The notes under the pieces were generated by a model, which ran no database searches, had not been told where the DNA came from, and saw only the letters and a program-made list of their open reading frames with translations. Positions 3,557-58,671 of a DNA stretch of 64,000 nucleotides are shown piece by piece. The DNA comes from a virus (Duplodnaviria > Caudoviricetes): the IMG/VR virus record IMGVR_UViG_3300021091_000011; one strand, 5' to 3'. Numbering within the stretch: position 1 is the first letter of the stretch; every line of letters begins with the position of its first letter. The position numbers were made by a program, and so were the translations under genes.

Positions 3557-3644
3557 TGGAATTACCCTCGGGCATTTTTTGGGTGCGGTTTCAATACGCG
3601 ATCTGCGCGATAGCGCAGATCACTTGAAAGTTTTTCGAGCGGTT

Positions 3645-22592: not shown

Positions 22593-24788
22593 TCACGCCG
22601 CCTTAAAGGACTTGGCGACACCTTCGATCTTCTTGGCGCGGCTCGGGAACATCACGCCCTCAAGATACGAGGCAAGCATCGCGGGCAGGTTTTCAACCTG
22701 CGGGACCGAAAGGTGCTCGGGGAACATTTGCCCGACCGAAGCACCCGCGTAACCCAAGCCGATGCCGACGATCTTGATTTGCGCGTTTGCAGACACGCGA
22801 ATCTGATTGCGGACCACTTCAGGGTTATCAGGCACACCGTCGGTAATCGTCAGCACGATCCGGTGACGCTCGCTGCGCTTATTCAACTCTTGGAGCGCGT
22901 ACTGAATACCGTCTTCGAGCGGCGTACCACCCGACGCCGTGATGCTCGGGAAGCGGGGCAGAGCCGTCACCATCGACTCGTTCCAATCCTTGAATACGTC
23001 GATTTTGATCGGCTGGTGACGATGGCATCCCACAGCCTCATCGTAATAAGCGCCGCTACCGTTTCGCGGGCCAATAGCGAGCACCGGACAACCGAGGGAA
23101 GAAAGCGCGTCGGCAATCGCCACCGCACCCTTGACCGTATCCTTGCGAAGCCCGTTCATCGAACCGGACTCGTCGATTACGAGCGCAACCGCGAGGCTAC
23201 AATCGTTCTTCTTGTCCTTCTGGTAATCGGGGCGCGTCGGGTCCATGCCCATCGAAATCTCGACAATCGAATCGACCATGCGACGCTCGCTCAGGTCCAC
23301 GCCCTTTCGGACACCGTGCGTGTAAGACGGCGTTCGCGCGGCCAAAAACTTGTTGCGGAGTCGCGCACGCAGCGCCGCAATCTCCTTGCGGACGCTATCA
23401 CGAATATTGGAACCCGATTTGCCTTCACGCACCGGAGCGAAAGCGACCTTATCCTCTTCGGGGCAAGGGGACCGCCACGGCCTCTCGCCTTTCGCAAGGT
23501 CGTTATTGAACGCAGCCGTAATCGCCTGCTCAAGTGCCTGCGCCACGTCTTTCACGTCCATCGTGGCGTCATGCGCGATGGCCTCAATCAATGCCGAGGC
23601 AAGTTCACGGACCTGATCGTCGGTGAGAACCGTGTGACCGTTTGCACCCTGCTCGCCGTCATTCGACTCGCCGTCGTCCCCGTCCTGATCGTCGTCCTGA
23701 TCGTCGTCCTGATCGCCGTCGTCCTGATCGTCGTCGTCCTGATCGCCGTCGTCCCCATCCTTCGGCTCAGGCTTATCGCTACCGCTACCGTTGCCATCCT
23801 TCGGCTCAGGCTTACCGCTACCGCTACCGTTGCCATCCTTCGGCTCAGGCTTACCGTTCTGCTCGCCCTTCGGCTCAGACTTACCGCCGCCTTCGGCGTC
23901 GTTCTCGTCCTGCCCGCCTTGCCCGCCCTCGCCCTCATTCTCGCCCTCTTGCGGCTTATCCTGCTCCGAAGCAAGGTCGCGGAGAAGCAAGGCGATGTCC
24001 ATCGCCATCCAAATCGCTTCCATATCAGCCGATTCGGGCAGGTTGATTGCCTTGTCGAGCATCGGACGCAACGGCCCATTCACGAAAGCGACCGCTTCGG
24101 GGCAAACCTGCTCGTAAAAAGCGAGCGCGGACCGCTGGCGCGGCGTGCCGTAGCCAAGCCCAAGGTCCCGAAAAACACAACCGATCATCGTCAAAAGCAA
24201 GTTCTCGGGCATCTGCTTCTCGAAGCCCTCTTGCTCCATCTTCAAGATCAAGTCTTGCAGGGCTTCCATCTTGGGCAACGCACCGGGAAACCGCGCGCAA
24301 CCCAATCGCTCAATGCGGATATCCTCGATGATGTTCGACCAACCCATCATCACCGAATGCTGGCTCTTCCAAAAGGCCATATCAGCCTTGCTCCATCGCT
24401 CGTTCAGCGGAGCCTCGATCTCTTCGCGCTTCAACGTCGTGCGCCGCGAGTATCGAGTGTGCCACGCCTCGTGGTACGCACCGCCGACGAGCGCGAGCGC
24501 CGTGCCCGCAGGCAAATCGTCCGGCGTCGCCGCGATCACGATATGCGGCGTAAAGTTCACGTCCGCGTTCGCCGTGTTCAGCAGACTGCTAATCTGCCAC
24601 GACTTTCCGGCATAGTAGGACATCGCCGTGAAAAGCGCACGGCCCGTCCAACGGTCGCGGTTCATAAACCCCGAACCGTAGGATCGGACCGGACGCCGCA
24701 CGTTCAGGTCGTGCAGCATACCGTCAACCGATTGCTGATGCGTCGCGCGCCACTTCGCGCCTGAAAGGGCCTTGAGCATGGTCGTCAC
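22593..24788 (-). CDS. VWA (MIDAS) domain protein, CobT-like MoxR partner, with acidic linker
   Basis: VIDESGSM, GGTP, ITDG. N-terminal HEAWH and NIIEDIRIE metallopeptidase-like motifs. EPKDGNGSGS and DDQD repeats. Confidence 0.85.
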   Translation of the reverse strand: MTTMLKALSGAKWRATHQQSVDGMLHDLNVRRPVRSYGSGFMNRDRWTGRALFTAMSYYAGKSWQISSLLNTANADVNFTPHIVIAATPDDLPAGTALALVGGAYHEAWHTRYSRRTTLKREEIEAPLNERWSKADMAFWKSQHSVMMGWSNIIEDIRIERLGCARFPGALPKMEALQDLILKMEQEGFEKQMPENLLLTMIGCVFRDLGLGYGTPRQRSALAFYEQVCPEAVAFVNGPLRPMLDKAINLPESADMEAIWMAMDIALLLRDLASEQDKPQEGENEGEGGQGGQDENDAEGGGKSEPKGEQNGKPEPKDGNGSGSGKPEPKDGNGSGSDKPEPKDGDDGDQDDDDQDDGDQDDDQDDDQDGDDGESNDGEQGANGHTVLTDDQVRELASALIEAIAHDATMDVKDVAQALEQAITAAFNNDLAKGERPWRSPCPEEDKVAFAPVREGKSGSNIRDSVRKEIAALRARLRNKFLAARTPSYTHGVRKGVDLSERRMVDSIVEISMGMDPTRPDYQKDKKNDCSLAVALVIDESGSMNGLRKDTVKGAVAIADALSSLGCPVLAIGPRNGSGAYYDEAVGCHRHQPIKIDVFKDWNESMVTALPRFPSITASGGTPLEDGIQYALQELNKRSERHRIVLTITDGVPDNPEVVRNQIRVSANAQIKIVGIGLGYAGASVGQMFPEHLSVPQVENLPAMLASYLEGVMFPSRAKKIEGVAKSFKAA

Positions 24789-29109: not shown

Positions 29110-29763
29110 ATGCCTAGCAACACCGTTAGACTGATTCTCGGCGATAGCCTAGTCAAACTCAAAGACCTAGCGCCAAACTCAGTAGACGCCGTAGTTTCAG
29201 ACCCACCCTATGAATTAACCGCTAACAAAAAAGGCGGCTCAGGGGTTGCCAGCATCAATCTTGAAAGTCCATACGGACGTTCACGGATCGGAACGGGCAA
29301 CGGCGGCGGCTTTATGGGTATGAAATGGGATTCGACCGGAATCGCCTTTTCACCCGAACTTTGGGGCGAATGCTTTAGGATTCTAAAACCTAACGGCGTT
29401 ATCAAAGCCTTTTCAGGCACGAGAACTTTTCACCGAATGACCCAAGCCCTGAAAAAATCAGGATTCGTAGACTTTGAAATTCACGCTTGGACTTACGGCT
29501 CAGGCTTCCCGAAGTCTATGGACGTGAGCAAGCAGATCGACAAGGCGGCGGGCGCGGAGCGGGAAGTGGTGGGGCGTGTGGCAGGCATGGGTAAGCAAAA
29601 CCCTGAATGGAACGGCACCGCACAAGGACGCGCTGAAAACTCGTTCAAGTCGGAATATGATGCAACCGCACCCGCCACCGATGCCGCTCGGCAATGGTCC
29701 GGGTGGGGCACCGCTCTAAAGCCCGCTTGGGAACCAATCATCGTCGCAAGAAAGCCAATATGA
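29110..29763 (+). CDS. Beta-class DNA MTase N-terminal (catalytic DPPY) polypeptide lacking motif I
   Basis: VVSDPPY, GFMGMKWD, YGSGFPKS and GWGTALKPAWEPIIVARKPI*. Confidence 0.85.
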   Translation: MPSNTVRLILGDSLVKLKDLAPNSVDAVVSDPPYELTANKKGGSGVASINLESPYGRSRIGTGNGGGFMGMKWDSTGIAFSPELWGECFRILKPNGVIKAFSGTRTFHRMTQALKKSGFVDFEIHAWTYGSGFPKSMDVSKQIDKAAGAEREVVGRVAGMGKQNPEWNGTAQGRAENSFKSEYDATAPATDAARQWSGWGTALKPAWEPIIVARKPI

Positions 29764-29846
29764 TCATCCACGTCTTGAGAAAGCCGTTGTCAGACACGGT
29801 CGCTCAAAACGCCTTGGCTCATGGAGCCGGAGCAAGGTGCCATTGA
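29760..29846 (+). pseudogene. Truncated MTase middle-segment gene
   Basis: MIIHVLRKPLSDTVAQNALAHGAGA matches 31280, then breaks at about 29834. Confidence 0.8.
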
Positions 29847-30339
29847 ATTCTAAAGCCGCCCCCATTTCAGGCAGGAAATAGTCTAGTACGGTCCCATAGC
29901 GACCATTTGGCCCCCGTAGATAATACTGATGTACGCAGGGCACACCTAGACGTTGAAGCACATCACCAACTTTCATTTCTAAGCCCGAGACGCGGGGTAT
30001 ACGGCCTTCCGCAATCGCCAAAGAAGTTGTCTGAGATAACTTGGCCTTGGTTTCTTCCGTGTGCTGATAGTTGCCCGCCGCCTTTCGGCGAACATTCATC
30101 TCACGTCGACGTTCGGCCTGCGCTTGTCGGGTAGCCTCTGGAATGATATAGGGCGTTTCTACTTTCCGACCTACCAAGCCCATCGAGCGAGCCTGATAGG
30201 AGCATTTGCGGGAGCATAAAAACGCCGTGGTCTTCGACCGAGCCACCACCGAAGGTGGTCTGGTTACAGGAGTGCCGCAAACTCCACAAGATTTTGCGAT
30301 TGAGAGGGTGTTGCTCTGCCCCACAGGGCGTGAGAGCAT
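29835..30339 (-). pseudogene. Truncated homing-endonuclease-like gene (Zn finger + NUMOD3-like + Vsr/DUF559-like)
   Basis: CGVCG..LCSRKC; HTEETKAKLS; SGLEMKV..Q..LDYFLPE..ALEFNG, then lost before the expected His motif. Confidence 0.7.
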
Positions 30340-30480
30340 TTACGAGAACAAGTCGTCTGCCGCCCATGTAATAAGCGGGTAGGGTCTGCTTGGTATAGGT
30401 CCCCGCAAACGGGGCAAAGTCGTTCAATCACGAGGTCACCACCTATGACAAATGAGGGAAACGGTCGTAGGGAGGGTCAG

Positions 30481-31283
30481 ATGATTCGCTTGGTTTTAGG
30501 GGACTGCATCGAGAAAATGCAGGATATCCCCCCAGGAACCATTGATGCGATCATCAGCGACCCTCCCTACGGCTGAATATATCAGGACTAGAATTCATGG
30601 GGAAAGAATGGGACGCACCTTGGAAGTCAAACGGATGGCAAGCCGGAGGCGGGTTCTCTAAACCTGGTATTGGCGAACGCCATACCGCATGGCCTAGTTT
30701 CACCGCGACTTCTAAGTTCGGTGCCACAAATCCAACTTGTGAGACTTGTGGGGGACGTGCGCGAGGTAAAAAACGCTGCGGTTGCGCTGAACCACAATGG
30801 AAAGCCATCGGCAAACGCCGCCACGTCGAAAATGAAGGCTTACCGTCTGACGTTACGAGTTCAGGGATGAGTAATCACCTTCGCCACTTTCAAGATTGGT
30901 GCGAACTTTGGTCAAGCCAATGCTTTAGAATCCTAAAACCTAACGGCGTTATCAAAGCCTTTTCGGGGACACGAACTTTTCACCGTATGACCCAAGCCCT
31001 GAAAAAATCAGGATTCGTAGACTTTGAAATTCACGCTTGGACTTACGGATCAGGCTTCCCGAAGTCTATGGACGTGAGCAAGCAGATCGACAAGCAAGCG
31101 GGCGCAGAACGAACGGAAGTCATAAAGCCGTTCAATGACGAAAACGGTTGGAACGCGAACGGAACCACGGGCGACCACGCCTATACCGCACCCGCCACCG
31201 ACGCCGCCCGTCAATGGTCCGGTTACGGCACCGCTCTAAAGCCCGCTTGGGAGCCGATCATCGTCGCAAGAAAGCCAATATGA
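30481..31283 (+). CDS. Second MTase N-terminal polypeptide, interrupted by a 14-nt insert after DPPY
   Basis: MIRLVLGDC...SDPPYG* followed, in a shifted frame, by GLEFMGKEWD...ARKPI*. Confidence 0.8.
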
Positions 31284-31738
31284 TCGTTCACGTCTTACGA
31301 AAGCCATTGTCAGGCACGGTCGCTCAAAACGCTTTGGCTCATGGAGCCGGAGCATTGAACATCGACGGATGCCGGATTGCTGTTTCTAGCGAAGAAAGAA
31401 AAACCTACGACGCCAATATGCGTGCGCTTGAACGGTACGCAGACGGCAGAGAAAAAATCGGGCAGTTTGAGGGTGGCTGGAAAGCAGACCCGTCCCGTGT
31501 CAAAAACGTGGGCGCTCGCTGGCCCGCTAATCTCGTCCATGATGGAAGCGAGCACGCCCTAGATAATTTTCCCGAGGCGGGAAATGGATGGAAGAAAAAT
31601 TACGGTGATGAAGTCTATGCCGTTGAAGGCCGTCATTATTCCGGAGGTTCTTTTGGCGGTGGTGGTTTTCTAGGGGGTAGCACTTATACGGACTCAGGCT
31701 CGGCATCTCGATTCTTTCAACAAGTGATAATCAAATGA
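31280..31738 (+). CDS. Free-standing MTase middle (variable/TRD-like) segment
   Basis: MIVHVLRKPLSGTVAQNAL, GALNIDGCR, RWPANLVHDGS, DSGSASRFF; ATGA overlap. Confidence 0.8.
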   Translation: MIVHVLRKPLSGTVAQNALAHGAGALNIDGCRIAVSSEERKTYDANMRALERYADGREKIGQFEGGWKADPSRVKNVGARWPANLVHDGSEHALDNFPEAGNGWKKNYGDEVYAVEGRHYSGGSFGGGGFLGGSTYTDSGSASRFFQQVIIK

Positions 31739-32163
31739 TCGTTCACGTCCTGAGAAAGCCATTGTCAGGCACCGTCGCTCAAAACGCCCTGCAACACGGC
31801 TGCGGGGCATTGAACATCGACGGATGCAGGGTTAGTTTGTCTTCCGATGAAAATCCAGACAAGTTGAGCGCGAGAAGCGGTGGGAACCGTGGTTTTGCTG
31901 AAGATTATGTAGGCGGGGTAACACGAAATTTACCTGCTGGTTGGGATTGCAGCAAGGGGCGTTGGCCCGCGAATCTCGTCCATGATGGAAGCGACGAAGT
32001 TGTAGAGACGTTTCCTGAGAGCAACCGCTGGTTCAACGCACCGAGAAATAGCGATGGAAAAGGCAAAGACGGCCAGATTTTTGATACTCACCGTGGCAGC
32101 GGGATGGGTGGCGGCGACTCCGGTTCGGCATCTCGATTCTTTCAGCAAGTAACCCTCAAATAG
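31735..32163 (+). CDS. Second free-standing MTase middle segment
   Basis: Same three constant blocks with different variable inserts. Confidence 0.8.
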   Translation: MIVHVLRKPLSGTVAQNALQHGCGALNIDGCRVSLSSDENPDKLSARSGGNRGFAEDYVGGVTRNLPAGWDCSKGRWPANLVHDGSDEVVETFPESNRWFNAPRNSDGKGKDGQIFDTHRGSGMGGGDSGSASRFFQQVTLK

Positions 32164-32480
32164 CAAACCCCCAAAAAGCCCCCCTTACTAATAACCCCCT
32201 CGCCCACAGACGAAACCTTACTAGACTAGATGCGATAGGCGTGCGTGGGTGGGGCTAGTGTTTAGGCATTAGCAAACCAATTCCAAGCCGTCCGTTTTTC
32301 AATGCGGTTTCAATATGGCTTTCGGGGTGGGTCCCGAGGCTTCGAAAGGTTTTACGCGCGGTTCTGGACACTCGTGTTTAGACCTCGACCAGACCGCGAA
32401 GTTGAAAAATCAGGTAGGGTTGCGATGAAACATTCGTTGCGGCGCTAGGGGATTTCAGCGGTCGTGGTATGATAGTGGTT

Positions 32481-32987
32481 ATGAAGAAGAATCCTTTGAT
32501 AGCCGCGAAGATTAAGTCTTTGGTGGGTGTGTTGAAGGGTGTGGGCGACAAGGCTACGCGCGTGGCTTGTCTGCTTGGCGTGTTGTTGGGGGAGACGAGC
32601 GCGGAGGGTTTAGTCTCTTTGCGTGGTGAGGCTTCCCTTCTTCGCATACGTCGGGTGTATGGGAAGGTCTATGGTGCGGAGTTGGCCGACCATTTGGGTC
32701 GGTTGCTTCCGGAGGGCGACGTCCCTTGTCTATTGGGGCGTGGCGGCAAGGCGTTATCCCGAGTGACGTTGTGGCGTCGCGTGGGGAAGATCGGCTTGGT
32801 GGGTCTGCGTCGTTTATCGTTGGCGTTTCGCAAGTTCTTTATGGAGCATTGCGAGACGCGGGAAGAGGCGCGGGATTGTGCGTCGGGGACGGGCTTTGTG
32901 TTGGGCACGCCGACGTCTTGGGTTCGTGTGTACGCTTGGTGGCCTGACGCACCGGATTGGTGTGGGCGGGTGAGGCGCTTTATATAA
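32481..32987 (+). CDS. Hypothetical basic protein (possible HTH)
   Basis: G+T-skewed ORF; TGGTATGAT extended -10-like sequence just upstream; LSRVTLWRRV. Confidence 0.4.
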   Translation: MKKNPLIAAKIKSLVGVLKGVGDKATRVACLLGVLLGETSAEGLVSLRGEASLLRIRRVYGKVYGAELADHLGRLLPEGDVPCLLGRGGKALSRVTLWRRVGKIGLVGLRRLSLAFRKFFMEHCETREEARDCASGTGFVLGTPTSWVRVYAWWPDAPDWCGRVRRFI

Positions 32988-33035
32988 GCGTGTTTGCGTC
33001 GTCGAAGCCGCTTGGAATGGGTGAGGGAGATTCAC
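32814..33035 (-). pseudogene. Truncated LPxPF paralogue (first about 11 aa only)
   Basis: GTGA-coupled MNLPHPFQAAS, then unrelated sequence running antisense into the 32481 ORF. Confidence 0.6.
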
Positions 33036-33310
33036 GGGGCTTTGCTTCCGTGGCCGTAACCCTGACCGTGACCGCTGCCGTAACTGCCACCGTAGCCGTA
33101 ACCGTGGCCGCTTCCGTCGCTGAAGCAGTCACCGTAGGCGCTTCTGTGCCAACGAGAACGCTGCGGCGGCGGCGGCGACAACTCAAAGGCCGTGGTCAGC
33201 GGGACTTGAGCGAGTGCCTTACCCTTGGCGTCAATCAGACTAATCGAGCCGTCGAGATTAGGCTTGACGTCAGACGCCGCTTGAAACGGTGGTGGGAGGC
33301 TTTTGATCAT
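33032..33310 (-). CDS. LPxPF-module protein with G/Y/H/S tail
   Basis: LPPPFQAASDVKPNLDGSISLIDAKGKALAQVPLTTAFEL + GYG repeats. Confidence 0.8.
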   Translation of the reverse strand: MIKSLPPPFQAASDVKPNLDGSISLIDAKGKALAQVPLTTAFELSPPPPQRSRWHRSAYGDCFSDGSGHGYGYGGSYGSGHGQGYGHGSKAP

Positions 33311-33705
33311 CTATATACGCCGTCGATTGAGGCTATTCCCCCATGGGTTTGGATCAGTTGTCTGAGGATTTCATGCGGCACATAGGCGTAGACGGTGTCC
33401 GTCGGGTCGTCTGAGTTTTCAGCGTAGGTTTGGATCAAGTCGTCAGGTTGATTGGGGAAGCCTAACTCATAATGAGTCCACGGCCCATGGTCCTTGCGGG
33501 GTCGGCAGTAGTGCGTTGCGCTGGCCCTTACGGAGACGGAGAACCCATCTTTGCAAGTGACCCGACCTTGATATAGGCCCAAATCTAAGGCCGTGTGCAG
33601 CGCAACTTGAGCGAGCGTCTTACCCTTGGCGTCGATCAGATCGAGTGAGCCCTGAGCGTTAGGCTTGATGCTCGTCGCGTCTTGAAACGGTGGGGGCAGT
33701 TTCAC
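33307..33705 (-). CDS. LPxPF-module protein fused to a folded phage domain
   Basis: Module + DGFSVSVRAS.THYCRPR..ELGFP..TVYAYVP..HGG. Confidence 0.85.
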   Translation of the reverse strand: MKLPPPFQDATSIKPNAQGSLDLIDAKGKTLAQVALHTALDLGLYQGRVTCKDGFSVSVRASATHYCRPRKDHGPWTHYELGFPNQPDDLIQTYAENSDDPTDTVYAYVPHEILRQLIQTHGGIASIDGVYR

Positions 33706-33932
33706 GGGCTTCTCCCACCGTCACCTTCGGACTGCTCATCACCGTAACCGCGTCCGTCACCGTAGCCACGTCCGTCACCGTAACCGTGGCCGTAGTCTTT
33801 TGTGCTCAACTCAAAGGCCGTGGTCAACGGGATTCGCGCCAACGGCTTGCCCTTGGCATCGGTCAGGCTGATCGTCCCGTCGGGATTAGGCTTGAGGTTA
33901 GTCGCGGACTGAAACGGATGTGGTAGGTTCAT
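33702..33932 (-). CDS. LPxPF-module protein with GYGDGR tail
   Basis: Module + (GYGDGR)n; 4-nt overlaps at both ends. Confidence 0.85.
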   Translation of the reverse strand: MNLPHPFQSATNLKPNPDGTISLTDAKGKPLARIPLTTAFELSTKDYGHGYGDGRGYGDGRGYGDEQSEGDGGRSP

Positions 33933-34282
33933 TTGGGAACCTTGCCTCCGGAGCCGTTGCCGATTCCAAATGGGTCGTATCCGGCACCTGAGTTGCCATC
34001 AGCGAAGCGGCATTTAGCACCTAAAGCGTCGCTGTAGCCGTAGTTCAGCGAAGCGAACAAAATGCCGCCGCCGAAAGGCATGATTTCAGATATGTTGGTC
34101 TTGTCGAGTAGCGAGTAGGCCGTGTTCAACGGCACGCGGGCAATCGGGAGGTCATTTTCGGTGGTCAGGTCGATTGTCCCATCGGCGTTTACGCGAATCC
34201 AGCGCACGTCTTGAAACGGACGTGGCAACGGCGACCGACTATGTGCAGGGTAGTGGACGTTGTCTGAGATGTAACCGTTCAT
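33929..34282 (-). CDS. Diverged LPxPF-module protein
   Basis: LPRPFQDVRWIRVNADGTIDLTTENDLPIARVPLNTAYSL. Confidence 0.8.
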   Translation of the reverse strand: MNGYISDNVHYPAHSRSPLPRPFQDVRWIRVNADGTIDLTTENDLPIARVPLNTAYSLLDKTNISEIMPFGGGILFASLNYGYSDALGAKCRFADGNSGAGYDPFGIGNGSGGKVPK

Positions 34283-34605
34283 GGGGACTTGCCTTTGCCG
34301 CTTATGTAGCCTTGGCCGTAAGCGACTCCGATTCCGAATCCTTCGCCGTAGCCGATTCCGAATCCATCACCCGAACCGTCTCCGTGATCTTTGCCGTAAG
34401 TGCCGTAACCGAAATCTCCATCGCCGCTGCCATCGTTGCTTGGCTTGAAGTCGCACTCATCCTTGTCACCGAGCGGCGACAACTCAAAAGCCGTGGGCAT
34501 CGAGATTCTTGCGAGCGGCTTCCCGCTCGCGTCGATTAGGTCGATTGAGCCGTCGAGATTAGGTTTGAGACCCGTCGCGGACTGAAACGGTGGGGGCAGT
34601 TTCAC
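34279..34605 (-). CDS. LPxPF-module protein with G/D/F/Y tail
   Basis: Module + GDG/GFG/GYG repeats. Confidence 0.85.
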   Translation of the reverse strand: MKLPPPFQSATGLKPNLDGSIDLIDASGKPLARISMPTAFELSPLGDKDECDFKPSNDGSGDGDFGYGTYGKDHGDGSGDGFGIGYGEGFGIGVAYGQGYISGKGKSP

Positions 34606-34961
34606 GGGCTTCTCCCATTAGCCCTATGGGAACGCTTGCCGTAACCGTCACCGTCACCGTGACCGTCACCGTAACAACCGATACCGCGACCGTGACCGTC
34701 ACCGCGACCGTTGCCGCGACCGTCACCGTAACAACCGTAGCCGTAACCGTCACCGTAGCCGAGGCCGTAACCGTCGCTGTAGCCGAGGCCGTAACCGTGA
34801 CCGTCACCGGAACCGTAGCCTGCGGCCTCGGGACTTAGATCAAAAGCCGTGGTCAACGGGATTCGCGCCAACGGCTTGCCCTTGGCATCGGTCAGGCTAA
34901 CCGTCCCGTCGGCATTGGGCTTGATGCTAGATGCGTCTTGGAACGGATGGGGCAGTTTCAC
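34602..34961 (-). CDS. LPxPF-module protein with GYGDG tail
   Basis: AGGAGA RBS before GTG 34961; module + GYG/GDG repeats. Confidence 0.85.
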   Translation of the reverse strand: MKLPHPFQDASSIKPNADGTVSLTDAKGKPLARIPLTTAFDLSPEAAGYGSGDGHGYGLGYSDGYGLGYGDGYGYGCYGDGRGNGRGDGHGRGIGCYGDGHGDGDGYGKRSHRANGRSP

Positions 34962-34978
34962 GGAGTTCAGTCTCCTGA

Positions 34979-35455
34979 TCAATCATCAATGTCTTCGGAG
35001 ATGTCGAATGCCTCGATGATCTCGTCAGGCAGGTCTCCGTGTGAGGTCACGGTATACTGTTGGTCCTCGCCGTGCCCAAAGATTCCGGCGAAAGCCATGC
35101 CAGGTTCATAGTAGAGCCCTCTGACGTCGAAACCGAGCTTGATTAGGTGTTGGTAGAACGCGATTGGGGGCGACCAGGCCGTGAAAAACTTAGCCGTAAT
35201 CTCTCCGTGGACGGAGGCAGTCACGGAACCCTCATCTATGTCCCATTTCGTGCCCCAATTGTCACAGCACCAATCATAACTGTCCCTAGCACCGTACTTA
35301 GCGAGGTTTTGCTCGGCAGACTGACCCTCCAATTCAGGGGGGCATGGCAGGAACTCGTGGAACAGTTCGTTGCGACTTAGGGCTTTCTCGGCGCGGGTTA
35401 GTTCGTCCACGGACTCGTGCTTCAGCGTCAGGTGGTTCATACACCAATTGGGCAT
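34979..35455 (-). CDS. DUF1281/YubB-like ferredoxin-fold protein
   Basis: MPNWC, DWCCDNWGTKWD, FFTAWSPP, YYEPG. Confidence 0.8.
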   Translation of the reverse strand: MPNWCMNHLTLKHESVDELTRAEKALSRNELFHEFLPCPPELEGQSAEQNLAKYGARDSYDWCCDNWGTKWDIDEGSVTASVHGEITAKFFTAWSPPIAFYQHLIKLGFDVRGLYYEPGMAFAGIFGHGEDQQYTVTSHGDLPDEIIEAFDISEDIDD

Positions 35456-35506
35456 GGTCTAACTCTTCTTTCTATGGGCTGATCTTGGTTGTCACAAACA
35501 CTCGGG

Positions 35507-35935
35507 CTATCTGTCGAGGCCAGGTTCGAGTGGGGCAAATTCACGTTCTCCCCCCACCGTCAACGTCACCGTAACCGACACCGGAACCACCGGAACCACC
35601 GTGACAGTCGCCGTAACCGTCGCCCTTCTCCCACCGTCACCGTTGGGCAGCCCGTCACCGTAACAACCGTAGCCGTAACCGTCACCGTAGCCGAGGCCGT
35701 AACCGTAGCCGTAGCTGTCGCTGTAACCGTCGCCGTCGCCGTCGCCGGAACCGTCGCCGCAACCGTAGTCGGAACCGTAGCCGTAACCGTAGCCTGCGGC
35801 CTCGGGACTTAGCTCAAAGGCCGTGGTCAACGGGATTCGCGCCAACGGCTTGCCCTTGGCATCGGTCAGGCTAACCGTCCCGTCGGCATCGGGCTTGAGG
35901 CCCGTCGCCGCTCGAAACGGATGAGGGAGGTTTAG
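35507..35935 (-). pseudogene. LPxPF paralogue with no canonical start and a frameshifted tail
   Basis: Begins CTA-AAC-CTC overlapping the upstream TAA. The GYGDG tail switches frame near 35625. Confidence 0.7.
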
Positions 35936-36264
35936 GCGTCCCACAAGCCGGACTCCCACGCCGCCGCCGCTTGAGGCGTGCAAGCCAGCAGCCCCGTTAT
36001 GTCCGTGTATTGCGCCATAGGCGCGGGAGGCGAAATCCTCGACCCCTGCAAAGGCCCCGTGTACGCAAGGCCGACGAACCCCCGCACTTCGGCGGGCCAA
36101 TAGACCACCACTCTGCAGTCCTTGAGCGTGATGGTCGACGGGTTCTTGGTCGTGGTCCCGTCCGGACTCACGACCTCAGTAGCGAGGTTGTACGAGACAA
36201 CCTCACCGAAGAAAACGCCGCGATGGGCGGTCGTGACGACGACCTTCTGACCGACAAAGTTCAT
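35932..36264 (-). CDS. DUF6948-like (Sm/SH3-like barrel) protein
   Basis: KVVVTTAHRGVFFG...TLKDCRVVVYW...GLAYTGP. Family recalled, not searched. Confidence 0.6.
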   Translation of the reverse strand: MNFVGQKVVVTTAHRGVFFGEVVSYNLATEVVSPDGTTTKNPSTITLKDCRVVVYWPAEVRGFVGLAYTGPLQGSRISPPAPMAQYTDITGLLACTPQAAAAWESGLWDA

Positions 36265-37824: not shown

Positions 37825-37945
37825 AGGGTCAAACAGATTGTGCGCTTTTAGGCCCCGTAGGAAGTCTCGGGTAGCCTCACCGAAACCGACTGACAAGCCC
37901 GAAGGCCCGCTCCTACGCGGCTAGAAACGCACAATCTGTCAAAGA
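37825..37945 (-). ncRNA. Structured RNA candidate, unit 2
   Basis: Perfect 12-bp ACAGATTGTGCG/CGCACAATCTGT stem, inner CGTAGGA/TCCTACG stem and a UUCG hairpin on the minus strand. Confidence 0.55.
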
Positions 37946-37947
37946 TG

Positions 37948-38069
37948 AGGGTCAAACAGATTGTGCGCTTTTAGGCCCTAAAGGAAAGTCTCGGGTAGCC
38001 TCACCGAAACCGACTGACAAGCCCGAAGGCCCGCTCCTATACGGCTAGAAACGCACAATCTGTCAAAGA
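37948..38069 (-). ncRNA. Structured RNA candidate, unit 1
   Basis: Near-identical tandem copy starting a few nt after motif copy 7. Confidence 0.55.
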
Positions 38070-38585: not shown

Positions 38586-38684
38586 TTACACCATCCAAAC
38601 GGTCGCAGGACGCCCGAAAAACCGAAAAAGTGACGTCGATTTTCGGTTTTCTTAGCCCGAAGCAACCGTTTGGATGGTGTAAGC
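38586..38684. promoter_or_regulatory. Back-to-back divergent bipartite motifs, copies 8 (minus, 38586-38629) and 9 (plus, 38638-38684)
   Basis: AAAACCGAAAA-AGTGACGTCGA-TTTTCGGTTTT dyad core; each arm has a 15-nt spacer. Confidence 0.8.
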
Positions 38685-38713
38685 GCAAGAAACCACTTTC
38701 TAGGGAGCCTTCG

Positions 38714-38851
38714 ATGAAGTTCCGCGACAACAAGATTGCCACCGCCCGCACCGAGGCGGGAATCGTGCGATCCAAGGCGGCTCGCAAGGCCGCGATCCGC
38801 GCGGTACGCCGCGCACGCATCCTCTTCATCGAGGATAGCGCGAAGAACTGA
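38714..38851 (+). CDS. 45-aa basic protein, cassette copy A
   Basis: MKFRDNKIATARTEAGIVRSKAARKAAIRAVRRARILFIEDSAKN; GGGAG RBS. Confidence 0.7.
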   Translation: MKFRDNKIATARTEAGIVRSKAARKAAIRAVRRARILFIEDSAKN

Positions 38852-38852
38852 T

Positions 38853-38899
38853 GATTTTCGGTTTTCCAAGCGGCCCCGAACCGTTTGGATGGTGTAAGC
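38853..38899 (+). promoter_or_regulatory. Bipartite motif, copy 10
   Basis: Consensus with a 15-nt spacer, right after TGA. Confidence 0.75.
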
Positions 38900-38928
38900 G
38901 CAAGAAACCACTTTATAGGAGACTTTCG

Positions 38929-39066
38929 ATGAAGTTCCGCGACAACAAGATTGCCACCGCCCGCACCGAGGCGGGAATCGTGCGGTCCAAGGCGGCTCGC
39001 AAGGCCGCGATCCGCGCGGTACGCCGCGCACGCAGCCTCTTCATCGAGGATAGCGCGAAGAACTGA
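38929..39066 (+). CDS. 45-aa basic protein, cassette copy B
   Basis: Differs from copy A by one residue (I to S); AGGAGA RBS. Confidence 0.7.
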   Translation: MKFRDNKIATARTEAGIVRSKAARKAAIRAVRRARSLFIEDSAKN

Positions 39067-39111
39067 GATTTTCGGTTTTCCAAGCGGCCCCGAACCGTTT
39101 GGATGGTGTAA
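39067..39111 (+). promoter_or_regulatory. Bipartite motif, copy 11
   Basis: Consensus with a 15-nt spacer, right after TGA. Confidence 0.75.
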
Positions 39112-39141
39112 CCACAACTTGAAACCTTGCAGGAGTAGAAC

Positions 39142-39587: not shown

Positions 39588-40670
39588 ATGAACATGAACG
39601 CGATCCCCAACGAAGTGCTCGAAGCGTGGCAGAACCGCCCGATCAAGACCCGCCGCCCCGCCCCCCGACTCGTCGATCTCACCGTTGAGATTGGCGACGT
39701 CGAAGTGCCCGTCGATACGGGCATCACGGCGAGCGATTGCTTGCCTATGCCCGAAGGCTACAAGTTCCCCACTAAGGGTGCGGCCAAGAAGTGTACCGAG
39801 CGCGCAATCCACGCGCTCGTGAAGGGCCGAAACGCCTTCATTCACGGGATGCCGGGCACGGGCAAGGACGCAATCGTCCACGCCTTCAGCGCCATGACCC
39901 GCAAGCCCGTGCTCATGGTCACTTTCCGGCCCGGGACCGATCTCGCACCTTGGTTCTATATGCGGTCATACACGGCGGGCGAAACCGGATGGCGCTACGG
40001 CGCACTCTGGAACGCACTCACCGAGGGCGTTATGGGCACCGACGGTAAGCCCCGCGCACCGCTGATCCTGCTCTCCGACGTTGACCGCGCCGATAGCGCG
40101 CAAGCAGAGTGGTTCCGAATCTTGACGGACAGCATTTCGGGCCGGATTCTCGGACCCGATGGACGCATGGTGCCGATCTTCCCCGGTACGCAGTTTGTCT
40201 GCACCGCCAACTCCTGCGGCACGGGCGATAGCCGTGGCCGCATGACCAGCGCAAACCCCATCGACGCCTCCATCATGGACCGCTTGGGCCGCGCAATCGA
40301 GTTCACCTACCTGCATTGGGACGACGAGGTTCAGGTCCTCCGCGAGAAGTTCCCGCTTCTCGTCGAAAAGGCCCCCGACGTGTTCACGCAGTTGCAGGGG
40401 TGCTGCGAGGCACTTCGCAAGGCAATCAAGAACGAGGAAATCTACGGCGAGTTCACGCACCGTGGCATCTGCGACGTGCTGGCCGAAGCCCAAGACCGAC
40501 TCGAAATTACGGGCAAGAGCGACAAACTGCTTCAAACAGGCTTCATGGCTTGGCTCCACCGACTCGACGCCGATAACCGACTCGCCGCAAAGCGACTCAT
40601 CGACCCCTTTATGAAGGGTGGCGCAATCGCCGACGACATTGGTGAGGCCGAATCCACCGAATCCCCCTAA
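39588..40670 (+). CDS. MoxR/CobS-like AAA+ ATPase
   Basis: Walker A GMPGTGKD, FVCTANS, IDASIMDRL. The Walker B position reads LLSDVDR. Confidence 0.85.
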   Translation: MNMNAIPNEVLEAWQNRPIKTRRPAPRLVDLTVEIGDVEVPVDTGITASDCLPMPEGYKFPTKGAAKKCTERAIHALVKGRNAFIHGMPGTGKDAIVHAFSAMTRKPVLMVTFRPGTDLAPWFYMRSYTAGETGWRYGALWNALTEGVMGTDGKPRAPLILLSDVDRADSAQAEWFRILTDSISGRILGPDGRMVPIFPGTQFVCTANSCGTGDSRGRMTSANPIDASIMDRLGRAIEFTYLHWDDEVQVLREKFPLLVEKAPDVFTQLQGCCEALRKAIKNEEIYGEFTHRGICDVLAEAQDRLEITGKSDKLLQTGFMAWLHRLDADNRLAAKRLIDPFMKGGAIADDIGEAESTESP

Positions 40671-41734: not shown

Positions 41735-42292
41735 ATGAGCCTTAGTATCTCACTTAACTCTAGTGCTGCGAAGTCCGGTATCTCTGGACCGCTTTGGTTT
41801 GCGTTTAGTCGAGAATTCGGCTTGGCTTTGGCTTCATGGTTGAACGCGAGTGCCTACGGCTATTCGCCTCTTGGTATTGCGCCTCCGGCTCCGTCTCCGA
41901 TTTCAGTAACGGGCTCGGGTCGATTGCAGACGTTTCGTGTGAGGTCACCTTCTGGCGTCAGTTCGGGACCTTTGGGCGTGAACACGGAGCGTGCGATTCT
42001 GGATGCGTTGGTTTTCGTGCCAATGGTTTTGAAGCCTCTAGGTTCTGGTTCGGGCTCTGGTGTGAGTCCTATATTGCCTTCGGGTAGTTTCCGTTCGAGT
42101 CTTGGTCCGTTGGGTGGTTATCTGGTCGCGCGTGTGGGGACGTTATCTGGTCCTGTTGGCAAGTCTTGGCTTTTGGATTTCGGTACTCGTCTGGAATCAG
42201 GTATGTCGTTTGTGGGTACTGCGACGGTGATTTCTCAAGTGCCTGTCCCCGTCCCCGTGATCGTATCTGTGGGGGTGATATGTCCTTTGTGA
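41735..42292 (+). CDS. Putative virion protein (S/G/V/P-rich)
   Basis: Overlaps the start of the giant ORF; similar composition. Confidence 0.55.
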   Translation: MSLSISLNSSAAKSGISGPLWFAFSREFGLALASWLNASAYGYSPLGIAPPAPSPISVTGSGRLQTFRVRSPSGVSSGPLGVNTERAILDALVFVPMVLKPLGSGSGSGVSPILPSGSFRSSLGPLGGYLVARVGTLSGPVGKSWLLDFGTRLESGMSFVGTATVISQVPVPVPVIVSVGVICPL

Positions 42293-45200
42293 TTAGCGGG
42301 TCTGGTGATCTATCTGGTGCGGTGGTCTGTGTGCCGAGCATCTGGATTAGACTTGGTGATCCTTGGACGAGGGTTTGTCCTCAACCTGCGAACGCGGTCA
42401 ATCTTTTTGCATCAGCCGCCGTGAACAATAGCAATAGTGCGGTCACTCTCACGCCTCGTGCGGTCGACTTGTATCATTGGGTTGAATCTGGCGTTGAGGT
42501 TAGAAATGTCGGCGCGATTAAGCCTTCTGGCAACGTCATACCGAGTGGGTTTGCTGTTGGCGATCAACTGCCTGATTACTTTCTTTTGGGTTTGGGCGGT
42601 GTGAGTGTTGATTGCGAGTTAGTGAGTAACAATCCCGGTGGCTTAACGCCTAATAGGGCTTACCTAAACATTAACAACGGCGAGTTTTACTTAGGCGCGG
42701 GCTTGATACTCGAAACTTTGCAGTACGGCCTAGACACCGTGCAGAGTTTAGTGGTTGGGGGGGATAACAAGGCCCGAGTTTGGGTGAATACGCTGCGTGT
42801 TGGCTTGGGTTTGGTTTTGTCTGACTGTATCTACGGCGTGTTAAACTGCCGTCTAGTAATCTCTGACTCAGACTTGCCTTTGCCTGCTGGTATTAGCCCG
42901 ACTGAGTTTTACTTATCGCTTGCTTCGGGCTTGTGTGTATTTTCTTCGGTTTATATTTCTGGTCGTGTGCTGAAAATCTTGGGCGTGGGCGTTTCTAGTA
43001 ATCCCGTGCCGAATGTTCGTCATGTAGTATTGAATGCGAACGGTCGTGGACAGGTTCCCGCAGCCGATTCGTTGACCTTGTGGCCGTCGAACTTAGCGGG
43101 TTGGTCGCGTGGGCCGATTACGGCGGTTGGCGATAGACCTTCGGCGTGGGGTGTTGTTACTGAGAATTCGGGCGAGTTGTTTATCGTGGGCAAGCGTGAT
43201 TTGCTTGCGATTGTCGAGTATGACTCGGACTTGCCGACGCAGGGTTACGGTTTGAATCGTGAGCGGGGGTATTACTCGCTTGAGTCTGGTGCTTTGCAGG
43301 TTCGTTCGGGTGTGGGCAACGAAGTTGTTGATTTCAAGTGTGGGTTAGTGCCTGTTGGTTTTGAGGCTCCTGTTGGCGTCGTCAGTTTAGTGGGTTTGCT
43401 TCGTGGTCCGTTTGACTTGAGCGGCGAGACATTTGTTTTCGCGCTTGACGGCGTTGTGACGTCATTTACGTTGCCGATTGGTAGATATACTTCGGGTCAG
43501 TTGGCCGTGTTGCTTAATGCGGCCTCTGGTGTTCCGAATGCGTGGTTTGATTTAGCGGGTGGTTTGGCTTGCGTAGCGAACGCGAGCATTGAGATTGGTT
43601 GGGGCGACGCTCGTATTGGTTTCGCGCAGGGTTGGATTGTCACGTCGGGCGCGCGTTGGAATTCTTACAACGGCTTGGCGATGGGCTTATATCGTCAGGT
43701 GGGCGAGGGGGATTTGACCGTCCGTTTGTACGGCGAGGTGGACGATGAGATTCTGGTCGAGAAGATCGGCGAATCTTCGTTGGTCTATTTGGGTCAAGGT
43801 TTTCCGGACGCGCTGCAATCTGGTTATGAGCCCGATGGTTTCTTTGAGATTGTGGGTTCCAACGGCTTGATTTCGCAGCCGTTGTCGGGTCGTCCGACGG
43901 CGGGCGTTTTCACGAGTTCGTGGGGCGTGGGTTTGCTTTTAGATTGCGTGGAGCGCAATCGTTTCTCGTGGGTCGAGCGTTTTGAGACGGGGTCTATTTC
44001 AGTAGACAACGGCGTGGATCAAATCACGCTCGACGGCTTGGGCGTGATTTCACTTACTCTTGAGGTCCAAGAGCCGAATTTGCCGTGGTTGCCGCAGGAG
44101 TATGTTCTCGTCGGCAACACGGCGTTGTTTTCATCGCGCATCGGCGCGGATTTACTATCGGGCGGCGTGGGCGAGTCTGTATCTGGCGTTTTCACGGACG
44201 TCACGATTGCTGATTTCACAGTTGCAAACGTGAACGTCGGTGACTTGCTGGTGACGAGCGATAATCTCGTCTATCGAATCATCAGCGTCGCGGCGGGTGC
44301 GTTGGGTTTATATCCGAGTGATTCGTTCGGGCTTGTGGGTTGGCAGGTTTTAGATACCGAGCCTGTTGGTTTAGCCGTGTACGATCCGGCTTTGATTGCC
44401 GACAGGCAGTTTTTACAGTTGCCGACGTGGGACGGTGGTGATCCGTTTGCGATTCGGGTGATTACGCCGTTATCGGGCGCGACGGCGAATCTTTCTAAGC
44501 CCTATGCGAAGTCGCTCCGTTACGGTGCTGTGGACGCGGGCAATAGTGCTTTGGACTTGCTTGTGCGTGGCGTGAGCATGGGCGCTTTGTCCTCGCAGAT
44601 GCAGATGCCTGCTTTTGTTTTGTCAGACCCGCATTACACGACGAGTACGGCGGGTGGTTTTTACTTCAGCCTTCGTGTGCCGACGGCTGTGATCGTGATT
44701 ACGTCGGCCTTCACGGTGCCTTCGCCGCCGCTTGGCGTGATCGAAGTCGGCCTATTCGGTTCGGGCATCAGCGGCCAAGTGCGTGTCGCATCGAACTTAG
44801 TGACGGCCTATGCTGATTTATTGGTCTACTACGATCAAGAGTTCTTGCCCGCTGGCGTGATCGTGAACGCCGAGGGCGATATAGCGACGGGTGCATTGAA
44901 CATTCCGACGGCGTATGCGGGCGAGTCGTTGTTCTTGGTCGAGAAATACACGTCGGATTCGGTGACGGTGAGCCCTGTTCCGGGCACGGCGTTTTTTCAG
45001 ACGCCGATTGAGCCGAGGCAATACGTTGAGGCGACGTATTACCCGACGAACTCGGGTGGTGTGAATAAGACGGGCGACTTGATTGTCGAGTTCATGCCCA
45101 TTTCGATTCGATTGGAGGAAGCGACGCGCATCAATGCGCGGCTTTACAGTTTCAATCCATCGGGCTTGGCGTATGACTCTGCTTCGGAGCCGATGATTTG

Positions 45201-58542: not shown

Positions 58543-58671
58543 CCCAGGAGTACCTGATTGCCCTTCTACGGAATTAGAGCATGAAGCCTCATAAGGTTCC
58601 GTAGCGGATATTGGTGAAAAACCCGATTGTCGGGTCATCCAACGGAAACTCCAGAATGGAACAGGAACACC

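Follow-up and report, generated by a model that had tools for sequence, protein, structure and literature searches.

A tandem array of small phage genes with a common N-terminal module and variable C-terminal tails

Gene content of the array

The window analysed here, a 64000 nt stretch of the viral record IMGVR_UViG_3300021091_000011 (Caudoviricetes) that comes from a large phage of lake water, contains seven genes (33032–35944) that encode proteins with a common N-terminal module of 45 amino acids (aa), the same seven that had been recognised in the sequence-only reading. All are on the minus strand, as are the interspersed remnants and the DUF6948 and DUF1281-like genes described below. Each of the seven was matched by the family HMM (E values 1e-17 to 1e-25), and no other match to this HMM was found in the whole 64 kb. 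The module genes are referred to as g1 to g7, g1 being the last intact member and g7 the one next to a DUF6948 gene; homologous loci and contigs from other records carry L-numbers, and representatives of the family clusters carry P-numbers. Two stubs beginning with MNLPH and one orphan tail fragment are also present. Overlaps of 4 nt (NTGA), seen previously between most members, were found at five live junctions (g6/g5, g5/g4, g4/g3, g3/g2 and g2/g1) and at both stub junctions (g1/stub and orphan tail/stub). The array runs leftward as a single translationally coupled string, and nothing resembling a promoter or a terminator interrupts it.

The immediate upstream neighbour of the array is the DUF6948 gene (35932–36264; 110 aa; Pfam PF22253, E value 1e-16), and its stop codon overlaps the start of g7 (35507–35944; E value 7.7e-23), which encodes the module and a Gly/Tyr/Asp tail. 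The g7 region had been given as 35507–35935 and described as damaged. It is not start-less, as inspection of the sequence revealed a GTG start at 35944 (MGRLNLPHPF...) that overlaps the DUF6948 stop, and a matching gene of 145 aa is called in L002. The damage is at the 3' end, where the sequence past ...GDGGR is out of frame and Val/Thr-rich until the stop at 35507. At the deletion junction (35624/35625), g7 continues in a shifted frame into the middle of a different Gly/Tyr tail. This orphan tail fragment (35541–35624), as read from the sequence, consists of 27 codons for Gly, Tyr, Asp and Ser with its own stop, and ends in GTGA, overlapping the next stub in the same way as at the live junctions. 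It is the leftover of a deletion that took out one module and part of its tail. The stub that follows (35437–35544) retains, on translation, only MNLPH of the module, as had been reported, and continues into unrelated sequence; it is not matched by the HMM and overlaps the start of a DUF1281-like gene located inside the array (34979–35455; 158 aa, starting MPNWC), identified by a match to phrog_20518 (E value 2.7e-13) and a weak match to Pfam DUF1281_C.

The next gene, g6 (34602–34982; E value 6.5e-24), encodes the module followed by the longest (Gly-X)n tail (74 aa, with 8 [GS][YF][GS] triplets). Its start had been placed at TTG 34982, but GTG 34961, with its AGGAGA Shine-Dalgarno sequence, is the more probable start. 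The tail of g5 (34279–34605; E value 1.1e-21) is acidic and made up of Gly, Asp, Tyr and Phe. In g4 (33929–34282; E value 1.2e-17), a diverged module with a 17-aa N-terminal extension is followed by a hydrophobic/Gly-rich tail, and this gene is the most conserved member (94–97% nucleotide identity to L003; dN/dS 0.34). The g3 gene (33702–33932; E value 1.1e-25) encodes a short tail of GYGDGR repeats and has identical tracts of 60 nt in common with g7 and 53 nt with g6, whereas in g2 (33307–33705; E value 3.1e-19) the module is fused to a folded domain of 87 aa. The last intact member, g1 (33032–33310; E value 1.5e-22), has a Gly/Ser/Tyr/His tail that is 89% identical to a tail fragment at the 5' end of L003. 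It is followed by the terminal stub (33003–33035), which on translation was found to retain 11 module residues (MNLPHPFQAAS), and not only the MNLPH described previously, before unrelated sequence that is antisense to an ORF at 32469–32987. In L003, a complete gene starting MNLPHPFQAAK occupies this position, after the g1-like tail.

The neighbours of the array include many DNA methyltransferase genes, a WhiB-like gene, and DUF6011, DUF6948 and DUF1281-like genes, with no enzyme annotation on either the DUF6948 or the DUF1281-like neighbour. No recognisable head gene was found among the genes scanned in the window, where the only head-and-packaging match was a weak, partial terminase-family match inside a UvsX-like ORF, and there is no recognisable tail gene near the array. 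A UvsX/RecA-like domain is encoded by the ORF at 6388–8931, in agreement with the earlier statement that the phage encodes RecA. A different portable N-terminal leader (MNKISSQDRSALIKLASSLP...) was found on four unrelated ORFs of the same phage.

The module family and its tails

The module was not matched by any family in Pfam, PHROG, NCBIfam or PADLOC, and none of 50,697 deposited phage genomes contained the module family. When 1.84 billion proteins were searched with a profile of the module, 61 matches were obtained at E≤0.001, and in all 32 of the small matches that were fetched (81–157 aa) the module was located at, or no more than ~20 residues from, the N-terminus. On these sequence comparisons, the protein family is new. 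An AlphaFold2 model of the module, made from an alignment of 37 sequences, had a pLDDT of 93 and consisted of three beta-strands and a helix, and the 45-aa mini-domain is thus predicted to fold on its own. Searches of structure libraries with this fold returned nothing significant (Z≤3.3, E≥0.1). Comparison of the paralogue modules (dN/dS 0.18–0.55 at dS 0.25–1.6) points to purifying selection on the module.

Several candidate identities were rejected. The sole curated-family match above cutoff, of g7 to a TrAA12-like family (31.7 bits, cutoff 30.9), falls in the Gly/Tyr tail and is compositional, and matches to KRTAP, SGP and keratin-head families were weak as well as compositional. The central hairpin of the module (...DG-x-I-x-L-x-D-x-x-GK-x-LA...) resembles the blade hairpins of WD40, NHL and designed Pizza propellers, and E values against propeller blades were low when the repeat matches were summed. 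However, each repeat contributes 3.3 bits, single modules had no match to WD40 or NHL in Pfam, and the three strands and helix of the model do not make a four-stranded blade. No PADLOC or anti-defence homology was found for the array proteins.

What follows the module varies: it is usually an acidic low-complexity tail of the (Gly-X)n type with much Tyr, Asp and Ser, and sometimes an unrelated folded phage domain. Across 26 tails of the family the composition was 33% Gly, 10% Tyr, 9% Ser and 8% Asp, and 19 of these tails had a net charge of about -1 to -9, the remainder being neutral or slightly positive. The number of [GS][YF][GS] triplets reaches its maximum in g6; X-Y-G triplets are numerous and Cys is sporadic. 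At least 28 clusters, with <50% identity between them, have retained the Gly/Tyr/Asp composition and the reading frame. However, dN/dS is near 1 in some tails, and relaxed constraint would also fit this value. To our knowledge, glycine/tyrosine-rich low-complexity tails are unusual for phage proteins.

The folded tail of g2, which had been assigned to a phage domain from the sequence alone, was found to be a widespread stand-alone phage domain, for which 31 homologues were identified. The module was absent from 12 of the 14 homologues fetched (exceptions P0066 and P0067), which bears out the view of a constant module with interchangeable tails, and fusion of the module to a g2-type domain recurs in four cluster representatives (P0006, P0015, P0066 and P0067). 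The g2-type domain is found in cultured phages of Curvibacter, Acinetobacter, Pseudomonas and Vibrio, and cultured phages encode it within strings of small hypothetical genes.

Variation of the array between phages

Module genes were found in tandem arrays on every contig examined, with up to 13 copies (13 in L007, 12 module matches in L017, and 4–7 in L003, L005, L006, L008 and L011), and tandem, overlapping genes were present even on contigs of less than a kilobase. Every examined phage of the lineage retains an array. The DUF6948 gene precedes the array wherever that end is on the contig, and lies directly upstream in L005, L007, L010, L011, L013 and L014–L018; distant DUF6948 genes in L019 and L020 have no array beside them. 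The DUF1281-like gene is inside the array at five loci, with the homologues in L007, L009, L012 and L017 near the array 3' end, and follows one copy in the window, 12 copies in L007 and ~11 module matches in L017. As all of the loci come from one syntenic phage lineage, the conserved neighbours may reflect shared ancestry and not function. The best explanation for the array is a multigene family encoding small accessory proteins, which evolves fast and is specific to one lineage, a clade of large freshwater phages.

The array is not invariant across related phages, as its copy content differs where the flanks are 95–98% identical. In L007 and L017, the flanks are 95.5% and 98% identical, whereas the array is 87–89% identical or not alignable and differs in copy content. 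The edge copies and g4 are 93–100% conserved between phages. The array interior turns over and the edge copies are stable.

Comparison of g5 with a gene of L003 encoding 107 aa revealed a dS of 0.09 in the tail (92% nucleotide identity) and of 0.72 in the module (78% identity). The tail of g5 is orthologous to the L003 gene, and its module is not. As the module and the tail have different histories, recombination is supported. Identical tracts of 35–70 nt occur between paralogues that are otherwise 75–85% identical. They include the junction repeat described previously, 35 nt that are identical at 33683–33717 and 34583–34617, exactly 900 bp apart, and the recurring block of ~59 bp, which was resolved into 60 nt shared by 33810–33869 and 35813–35872, 53 nt shared by 33817–33869 and 34846–34898, and 70 nt shared by 34846–34915 and 35820–35889. 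The orphan tail and the two stubs are deletion scars. The discordant dS values, identical tracts, deletion remnants and differing copy content uphold the proposal that the locus is diversified by homologous recombination and repeat change; the array changes through unequal crossing-over, gene conversion, deletion and repeat-length change. A diversity-generating retroelement target was rejected, as the copies differ by indels and all base changes and as, in line with the sequence-only reading, a non-exhaustive scan of the ORFs revealed no reverse transcriptase.

The locus had also been suggested to be a contingency locus with rapid switching. However, in a lake population represented by three metagenomes the array shows 2 SNPs and neither indels nor joints, and the same array is present on two JGI contigs (99.6–99.95% identity). 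As the array is fixed within one lake population, it is not a fast-switching contingency locus, though this comparison uses contigs, which hide rare variants, and low-frequency variation could persist.

Possible roles of the array proteins

The reading preferred here, to which we assign a probability of about 0.4, is that of an accessory array whose products interact with the host in the cytoplasm through a module handle and variable working tails. Through the module, as a common handle, all paralogues would be brought to one and the same host or phage protein, and the tails would be the working parts, as sticky multivalent regions of the [G/S]-Y-[G/S] type or as other payloads. The proteins may act in the cytoplasm of the infected cell, in host take-over or counter-defence, and tail diversity may be maintained by an arms race. 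The selection on the module, the constant occurrence in arrays, the modularity, the recombination, the hypervariability, the tail chemistry and the accessory, early-type setting of the array were counted in favour of this reading. Weighed against it were the tails with dN/dS near 1, the origin of all loci from a single lineage, the lack of PADLOC or anti-defence homology and the invariance of the array in the lake population sampled. The docking-domain and anti-defence roles put forward in the sequence-only reading are likewise putative. A similar architecture is known in the mycobacterial PE-PGRS proteins, where a helical PE domain of 110 aa, a type VII secretion signal, precedes Gly-Ala repeats. 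Both have a conserved N-terminal domain, variable Gly-rich low-complexity repeats, occasional replacement by a folded domain and recombination in the repeats, but PE-PGRS is a cellular family with no homology to the array genes, which form a phage operon with 4-nt overlaps.

A more specific possibility, and an unlikely one, is that the 7–13 co-translated proteins are anchored to one hub by the mini-domain, and that multivalent contacts between FUS-like Tyr-rich (Gly-X)n tails lead to a condensate or gel in the infected bacterium. The phage would in this way build a compartment or trap without a membrane, and array recombination would retune its composition. FUS-type low-complexity domains are Gln-rich and contain [G/S]-Y-[G/S] triplets; the array tails are also Gly/Ser/Tyr-rich and predicted to be disordered, and in g6 the density of [GS][YF][GS] is about one per 9 residues. 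However, they are much shorter (30–75 aa), Asp-rich instead of Gln-rich, and in strict Gly-X alternation.

It is also doubtful that the proteins are virion cargo, with the module acting as a capsid-targeting tag or propeptide, perhaps cleaved, and the paralogues packed in the head so that the tails are internal or ejected peptides. The T4 internal proteins IPI, IPII and IPIII come from a hyperplastic locus and have an N-terminal capsid targeting sequence, a linear tag of ~10 residues that is cleaved; T4 also has acidic internal peptides, and IPI* has a known anti-defence role. The array resembles them in its common N-terminal element on otherwise unrelated small proteins and in its strong variation between related phages. 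In many members the module ends in ...AFE-LSPE..., which is compatible with the S/A-x-E-type prohead protease sites known from phiKZ-like phages, but the residue after the helix varies (E, D, S, A, N, G or V), and neither Glu nor an acidic residue is conserved across the family. The module has no sequence similarity to the T4 element and is predicted to be a folded domain under purifying selection and not a short linear tag; the array is located among methyltransferase and small accessory genes, with no recognisable head gene among those scanned, and the MNKISSQDRSALIKLASSLP... leader on four unrelated ORFs is a more obvious candidate for a cargo tag. Attachment to the outside of the virion is highly improbable. 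In that case the module would dock on a tail fibre and the tails would be interchangeable adhesin surfaces, as in T-even gp38, which has glycine-rich motifs; a constant part for attachment, joined to a variable glycine-rich part of which each genome has several versions, would fit. However, the 30–75 aa tails are short and acidic, with a (Gly-X)n dipeptide pattern that includes bulky Tyr or Asp, no recognisable tail gene is nearby, and one member carries an accessory domain of cytoplasmic type.

The conserved N-terminal part, hypervariable Gly-rich C-terminal part and many adjacent genes are also features of RiPP precursors such as the multi-copy prochlorosins (ProcA), the Gly-rich microcin B17 (McbA) and X-Y-G splicease substrates. 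The module would then be a long leader for a modifying enzyme and the Gly/Tyr/Ser/Cys-rich tails hypervariable cores, which would suit the abundant X-Y-G triplets, the sporadic Cys and the short conserved LSPE-type junction of many members. This was judged quite unlikely, as the DNA searched revealed no modifying enzyme: the ORFs of ≥120 aa in the 64-kb window of the 204-kb genome lack a CxxxCxxC radical-SAM motif, and a related 43-kb IMG/VR record has no Radical_SAM match. There is also no NCBIfam leader family or Pfam match, the leader is confidently predicted to be an independent fold, and one member has the 87-aa folded domain in place of a core. Neutral or selfish expansion, where a recombination-prone repeat grows and decays while the phage gains little from it and the tails serve as compositional filler, would account for the stubs, the orphan tail, the frameshifted g7, frameshifted members elsewhere (P0009 and P0047) and the tail pairs with dN/dS near 1. 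It is improbable given the purifying selection on modules at saturating dS, the tail composition and frame kept across the divergent clusters, the conservation of the edge copies and g4, and the retention of an array in every examined phage of the lineage.

Within a genome segment that is otherwise conserved, the array varies most, a pattern typical of genes at the host-virus interface. Should the tails form condensates, or serve as variable baits or decoys, they would represent a new type of phage tool for host manipulation. Small genes without an assigned function abound in phage genomes. Here, one 45-residue domain, confidently folded in the model, defines a whole family of them, and the isolated module would be a ready-made affinity handle for finding the target. 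Even if its function is mundane, the array illustrates cleanly how modules and tails are shuffled in nature and how a phage gene family undergoes birth-and-death evolution.

Layout of the module array

The segment at 33003–36264 was found to be a single tightly packed string of genes, all on the minus strand, in which a DUF6948 gene (35932–36264; Pfam E-value 1e-16) precedes seven related genes, designated g7 (the upstream-most) to g1 (the last). The products of these seven genes could be aligned across ~45 N-terminal residues (here the module; pattern L-P-x-P-F ... G ... L ... A ... T-A ... L), and each continues into a variable C-terminal part, the tail. The seven-gene array described in the sequence-only reading was confirmed and extended, and an HMM of the wider family matched exactly seven places in the 64 kb, namely g1 to g7 (E-values 1e-17 to 1e-25).

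The g7 gene (35507–35944) had been described as damaged. The damage is real and affects the 3′ end: through a deletion at 35624/35625, the gene runs out of frame into the middle of another tail. The start, a GTG at 35944 overlapping the stop codon of the DUF6948 gene, is intact. Remnants of deleted copies are present here as an orphan tail fragment (35541–35624) and a five-residue stub (from 35544), and a DUF1281-like gene with the N-terminus MPNWC (34979–35455; phrog_20518, E-value 2.7e-13) is embedded in the array. The remaining genes follow in the order g6, g5, g4, g3, g2 and g1 (34982 down to 33032), with the GTG at 34961 the most likely start of g6, and a terminal stub at 33035 retains 11 module residues.

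NTGA overlaps were found at g6/g5, g5/g4, g4/g3, g3/g2, g2/g1, g1/stub and orphan tail/stub, and most starts are preceded by a Shine-Dalgarno-like GGAG or GGGAGA (g6, g5, g3 and g2). A consensus scan of the coding strand revealed no convincing promoter-like or terminator-like sites inside the string. The recurrent DNA blocks reported earlier proved to be exact repeats, with 35 nt in copies 900 bp apart, 60 nt common to g3 and g7, 53 nt common to g3 and g6, and 70 nt common to g6 and g7. Plus-strand ORFs over the tails (e.g. 34590–34838 and 35489–35812), which would encode Val/Thr-rich products, were rejected as genes, as they are antisense shadows of the periodic Gly-X codons.

The module and its tails

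A profile of the module was compared with 1.84 billion representative proteins, and 61 matches were obtained at E≤0.001. All 32 of the small proteins fetched (81–157 aa) carry the module at the N-terminus or within ~20 residues of it, and most begin M-N-L-P-x-P-F. The C-terminal part is a Gly-rich tail in 28, a domain of the type found in g2 in two, and g4-like in the other two. Profile and structure searches with the module alone, as proposed with the sequence-only reading, led to no curated family and no significant fold match. No family matching the module was found in Pfam, PHROG, NCBIfam or PADLOC, the module had no tblastn match in 50,697 deposited phage genomes, and the locus DNA had no megablast match to deposited phages. 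A scan of IMG/VR using the close alignment also gave no match, and one with the pattern MNLP[YHP]PF recovered one locus. A literature search on DUF6948, DUF1281 and Gly/Tyr-rich phage proteins found nothing relevant. The module genes are a new, uncharacterised phage protein family.

An AlphaFold2 model of the module, built with a 37-sequence alignment, is a confident mini-domain (pLDDT 93) with strands at residues 10–15, 20–25 and 30–35 and a helix at 36–42. Searches with this model of five libraries (PDB, AFDB clusters, VIA-wide, BFVD and ESM Atlas) returned nothing significant, and the module is, as modelled, a new small fold. The low-scoring matches that recurred were to AprI/Inh protease-inhibitor barrels (Z 2.4–2.6; TM 0.70 by query), a resemblance in the predicted structure that is a lead only. 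Multi-stretch matches to WD40 proteins and Pizza/NHL designs in the PDB had suggested that the module forms one beta-propeller blade and that such blades oligomerise into a ring. This was rejected because the matches amount to ~3 bits per repeat, no module has a WD40 or NHL match in Pfam, and the AlphaFold2 model has three strands and a helix. These large matches represent a generic beta-hairpin motif and not homology, and other large multi-stretch matches (P0011, P0016 and P0027) are repeated generic DG-x-x-x-x-D-x-x-G hairpins. Full-length g2 modelled without an alignment gave a poor structure (pLDDT 48.6), which was set aside, and a three-chain complex prediction of the module with the DUF1281-like and DUF6948 proteins scored 0.00, with a partner pLDDT of ~44, and speaks neither for nor against an interaction.

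The tails have an unusual low-complexity chemistry. Over 26 family members they consist of 33% Gly, 10% Tyr, 9% Ser and 8% Asp, with a net charge of mostly -1 to -9; Gly residues alternate with others, matching DNA periods of 6, 12 and 18 nt, and a tail may include up to eight [GS][YF][GS] triplets. Pfam matches of the tails to TrAA12, KRTAP, sulphur-globule and keratin-head models were dismissed as compositional. The g4 tail is hydrophobic and Gly-rich. The g2 tail differs from the others in being a conserved 87-aa domain with 31 homologues, located at 33307–33570 (minus strand; ~85 aa; pattern CKDGF.VS.QAS..HYC.PR...VELGFP...YAE...TDTVY.YVP...HGG). Homologues fetched for this tail are mostly stand-alone proteins of 90–130 aa that lack the module, and in cultured Curvibacter, Acinetobacter, Pseudomonas and Vibrio phages the domain is encoded by hypothetical genes within runs of small unannotated genes. 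Though widespread in cultured and uncultured phages, it has no Pfam or PHROG match.

Evolution of the array in related phages

The window is phage DNA, encoding a UvsX-like recombinase domain, a Dda-like helicase, a DNA polymerase, an SbcC-like nuclease and many DNA methyltransferases, and the same protein is also recorded on a 204-kb contig. At least seven methyltransferase-like ORFs (N6_N4_Mtase and D12 class) are located at 451–4859 and 29110–32163. In the 29–32 kb set, internal repeats that are 81% identical (29355–29834 and 30902–31354) and short overlapping modules suggest that methyltransferase genes have been split or shuffled. Tandem duplications of ~120 nt and ~270 nt (37825–38069 and 38638–39126; 92–95% identical in window self-matches) lie upstream of and inside a DUF6011-containing gene region. 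A plus-strand ORF at 58627–59601, with a portable leader region nearby, matches the thaumatin family (Pfam E-value 1.7e-15), which to our knowledge is unusual in bacteriophage.

On every contig examined that carries it, the module occurs in tandem, with 13 copies in L007, 12 module matches in L017 and 4–7 in L003, L005, L006, L008 and L011; contigs of only 0.5–1.4 kb also show overlapping tandem module genes. A DUF6948 gene is directly upstream wherever the 5′ edge of the array is visible (L005, L007, L010, L011, L013 and L014–L018), and the arrays of the window, L007, L009, L012 and L017 have the DUF1281-like gene embedded within them. Distant DUF6948 genes (44% identity; L019 and L020) are found without an array. 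As all array loci share a wider synteny that includes a WhiB-like gene, an AAA_5 gene and a giant ORF, the conserved neighbours may reflect common descent rather than functional partnership. In the window, the MoxR-like AAA_5 ATPase gene (39588–40670, plus strand) and the gene for a 731-aa VWA-domain protein (22593–24788, minus strand) are both conserved in related contigs. Two giant plus-strand ORFs (42166–52011 and 52060–57369) encode 3281 and 1769 aa, and relatives in the same lineage encode homologous ~3250-aa proteins adjoining the AAA_5 gene.

The array is fixed within one lake population. The window shares 99.6–99.95% identity with two JGI contigs, and contigs from three lake-water metagenomes that tile the array region show two SNPs and neither indels nor joints; the earlier proposal of a contingency locus was thus not supported. 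Between related phages, however, the array is the most variable segment. Arrays in L007 and L017 are 87–89% identical or unalignable, with different middle copies, inside flanks that are 95.5% and 98% identical, so that the array is not invariant across related phages. The position of the DUF1281-like gene relative to the copies also shifts. In the window, one copy and two remnants come before it and six copies after it. In L007 it comes after 12 copies and in L017 after ~11 module matches, and a single copy follows it in each of L007, L009, L012 and L017. In L003, a relative with a baseline identity of ~81–97%, the order is unlike that in the window, comprising a g1-like tail, a g5-like gene, a new 84-aa gene, a g4-like gene, an 85-aa gene, a 94-aa gene and a g2-like start.

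The best-conserved member is g4, which shares 94–97% nucleotide identity with L003. For g5 and its L003 counterpart, dS is 0.09 in the tail (equal to that of g4) and 0.72 in the module; module and tail have separate histories. This and the differing array content of related phages support the modular architecture and recombination put forward in the sequence-only reading. Nearest-neighbour analysis found 93–100% identical orthologues of the edge copies and g4 in other phages, whereas for inner Gly/Tyr copies (e.g. g3, g6 and g7) the nearest relative is often a paralogue from the same genome. The copies at the edges are stable, and turnover affects those inside. Decay is ongoing: the window has stubs and an orphan tail, and members elsewhere (P0009 and P0047) are frameshifted. 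Together, fixity in the population, variability between phages, discordance of module and tail, the contrast of edge and inner copies, and decay amount to birth-and-death evolution with unequal crossing-over, gene conversion and repeat-length change.

L018 is identical to L017 (100%) over 2957 nt that include seven module matches, though from a different sample, and the two diverge completely from L017 position 8149/L018 position 2957, inside a Gly/Tyr tail, which may represent a strain-level variant or an assembly chimera. In L016, one module is apparently split with its second half inverted (1474–1539, plus strand; 1621–1550, minus strand), either a small inversion within the array or a short-read assembly artefact.

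Possible roles of the array products

The arrangement of the array has parallels in T4 internal-protein loci, PE-PGRS and multi-copy RiPP precursors. The array products could be virion cargo, but this reading is weakened, as the acidic residue at the putative cleavage site is not conserved and a different portable N-terminal leader is carried by four otherwise unrelated ORFs of the same phage. This leader of ~30 aa (MNKISSQDRSALIKLASSLP..G...R.AILAGL) is found on plus-strand ORFs starting at 26400, 27106, 57958 and 59793 in the window and on the minus strand of L007 (9812–10189), and makes a stronger virion-cargo tag candidate than the LPxPF module. RiPP-like precursors would account for the leader/core/multi-copy pattern and for cores rich in X-Y-G; however, a radical-SAM signature was found neither in the window nor in a related 43-kb record, and in one member a folded domain occupies the position of the core. 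An identification as tail-fibre tips has little support. Neutral expansion of the array is contradicted by the selection data, as the module paralogues, with dS of 0.25–1.6 and dN/dS of 0.18–0.55, are old duplicates under purifying selection.

The preferred reading is that the array products would be co-translated cytoplasmic accessory proteins. It is based on the architecture, the accessory-gene setting beside an unusual methyltransferase load, the early-gene-type payload of g2, and a constrained module in a hypervariable array. The docking role of the module and the anti-defence role of the array raised in the sequence-only reading are retained as hypotheses. As co-translated accessory proteins, all array products would be brought to a common partner by the folded module, and the activity itself, in host take-over or counter-defence, would reside in the tails or, occasionally, in another payload.
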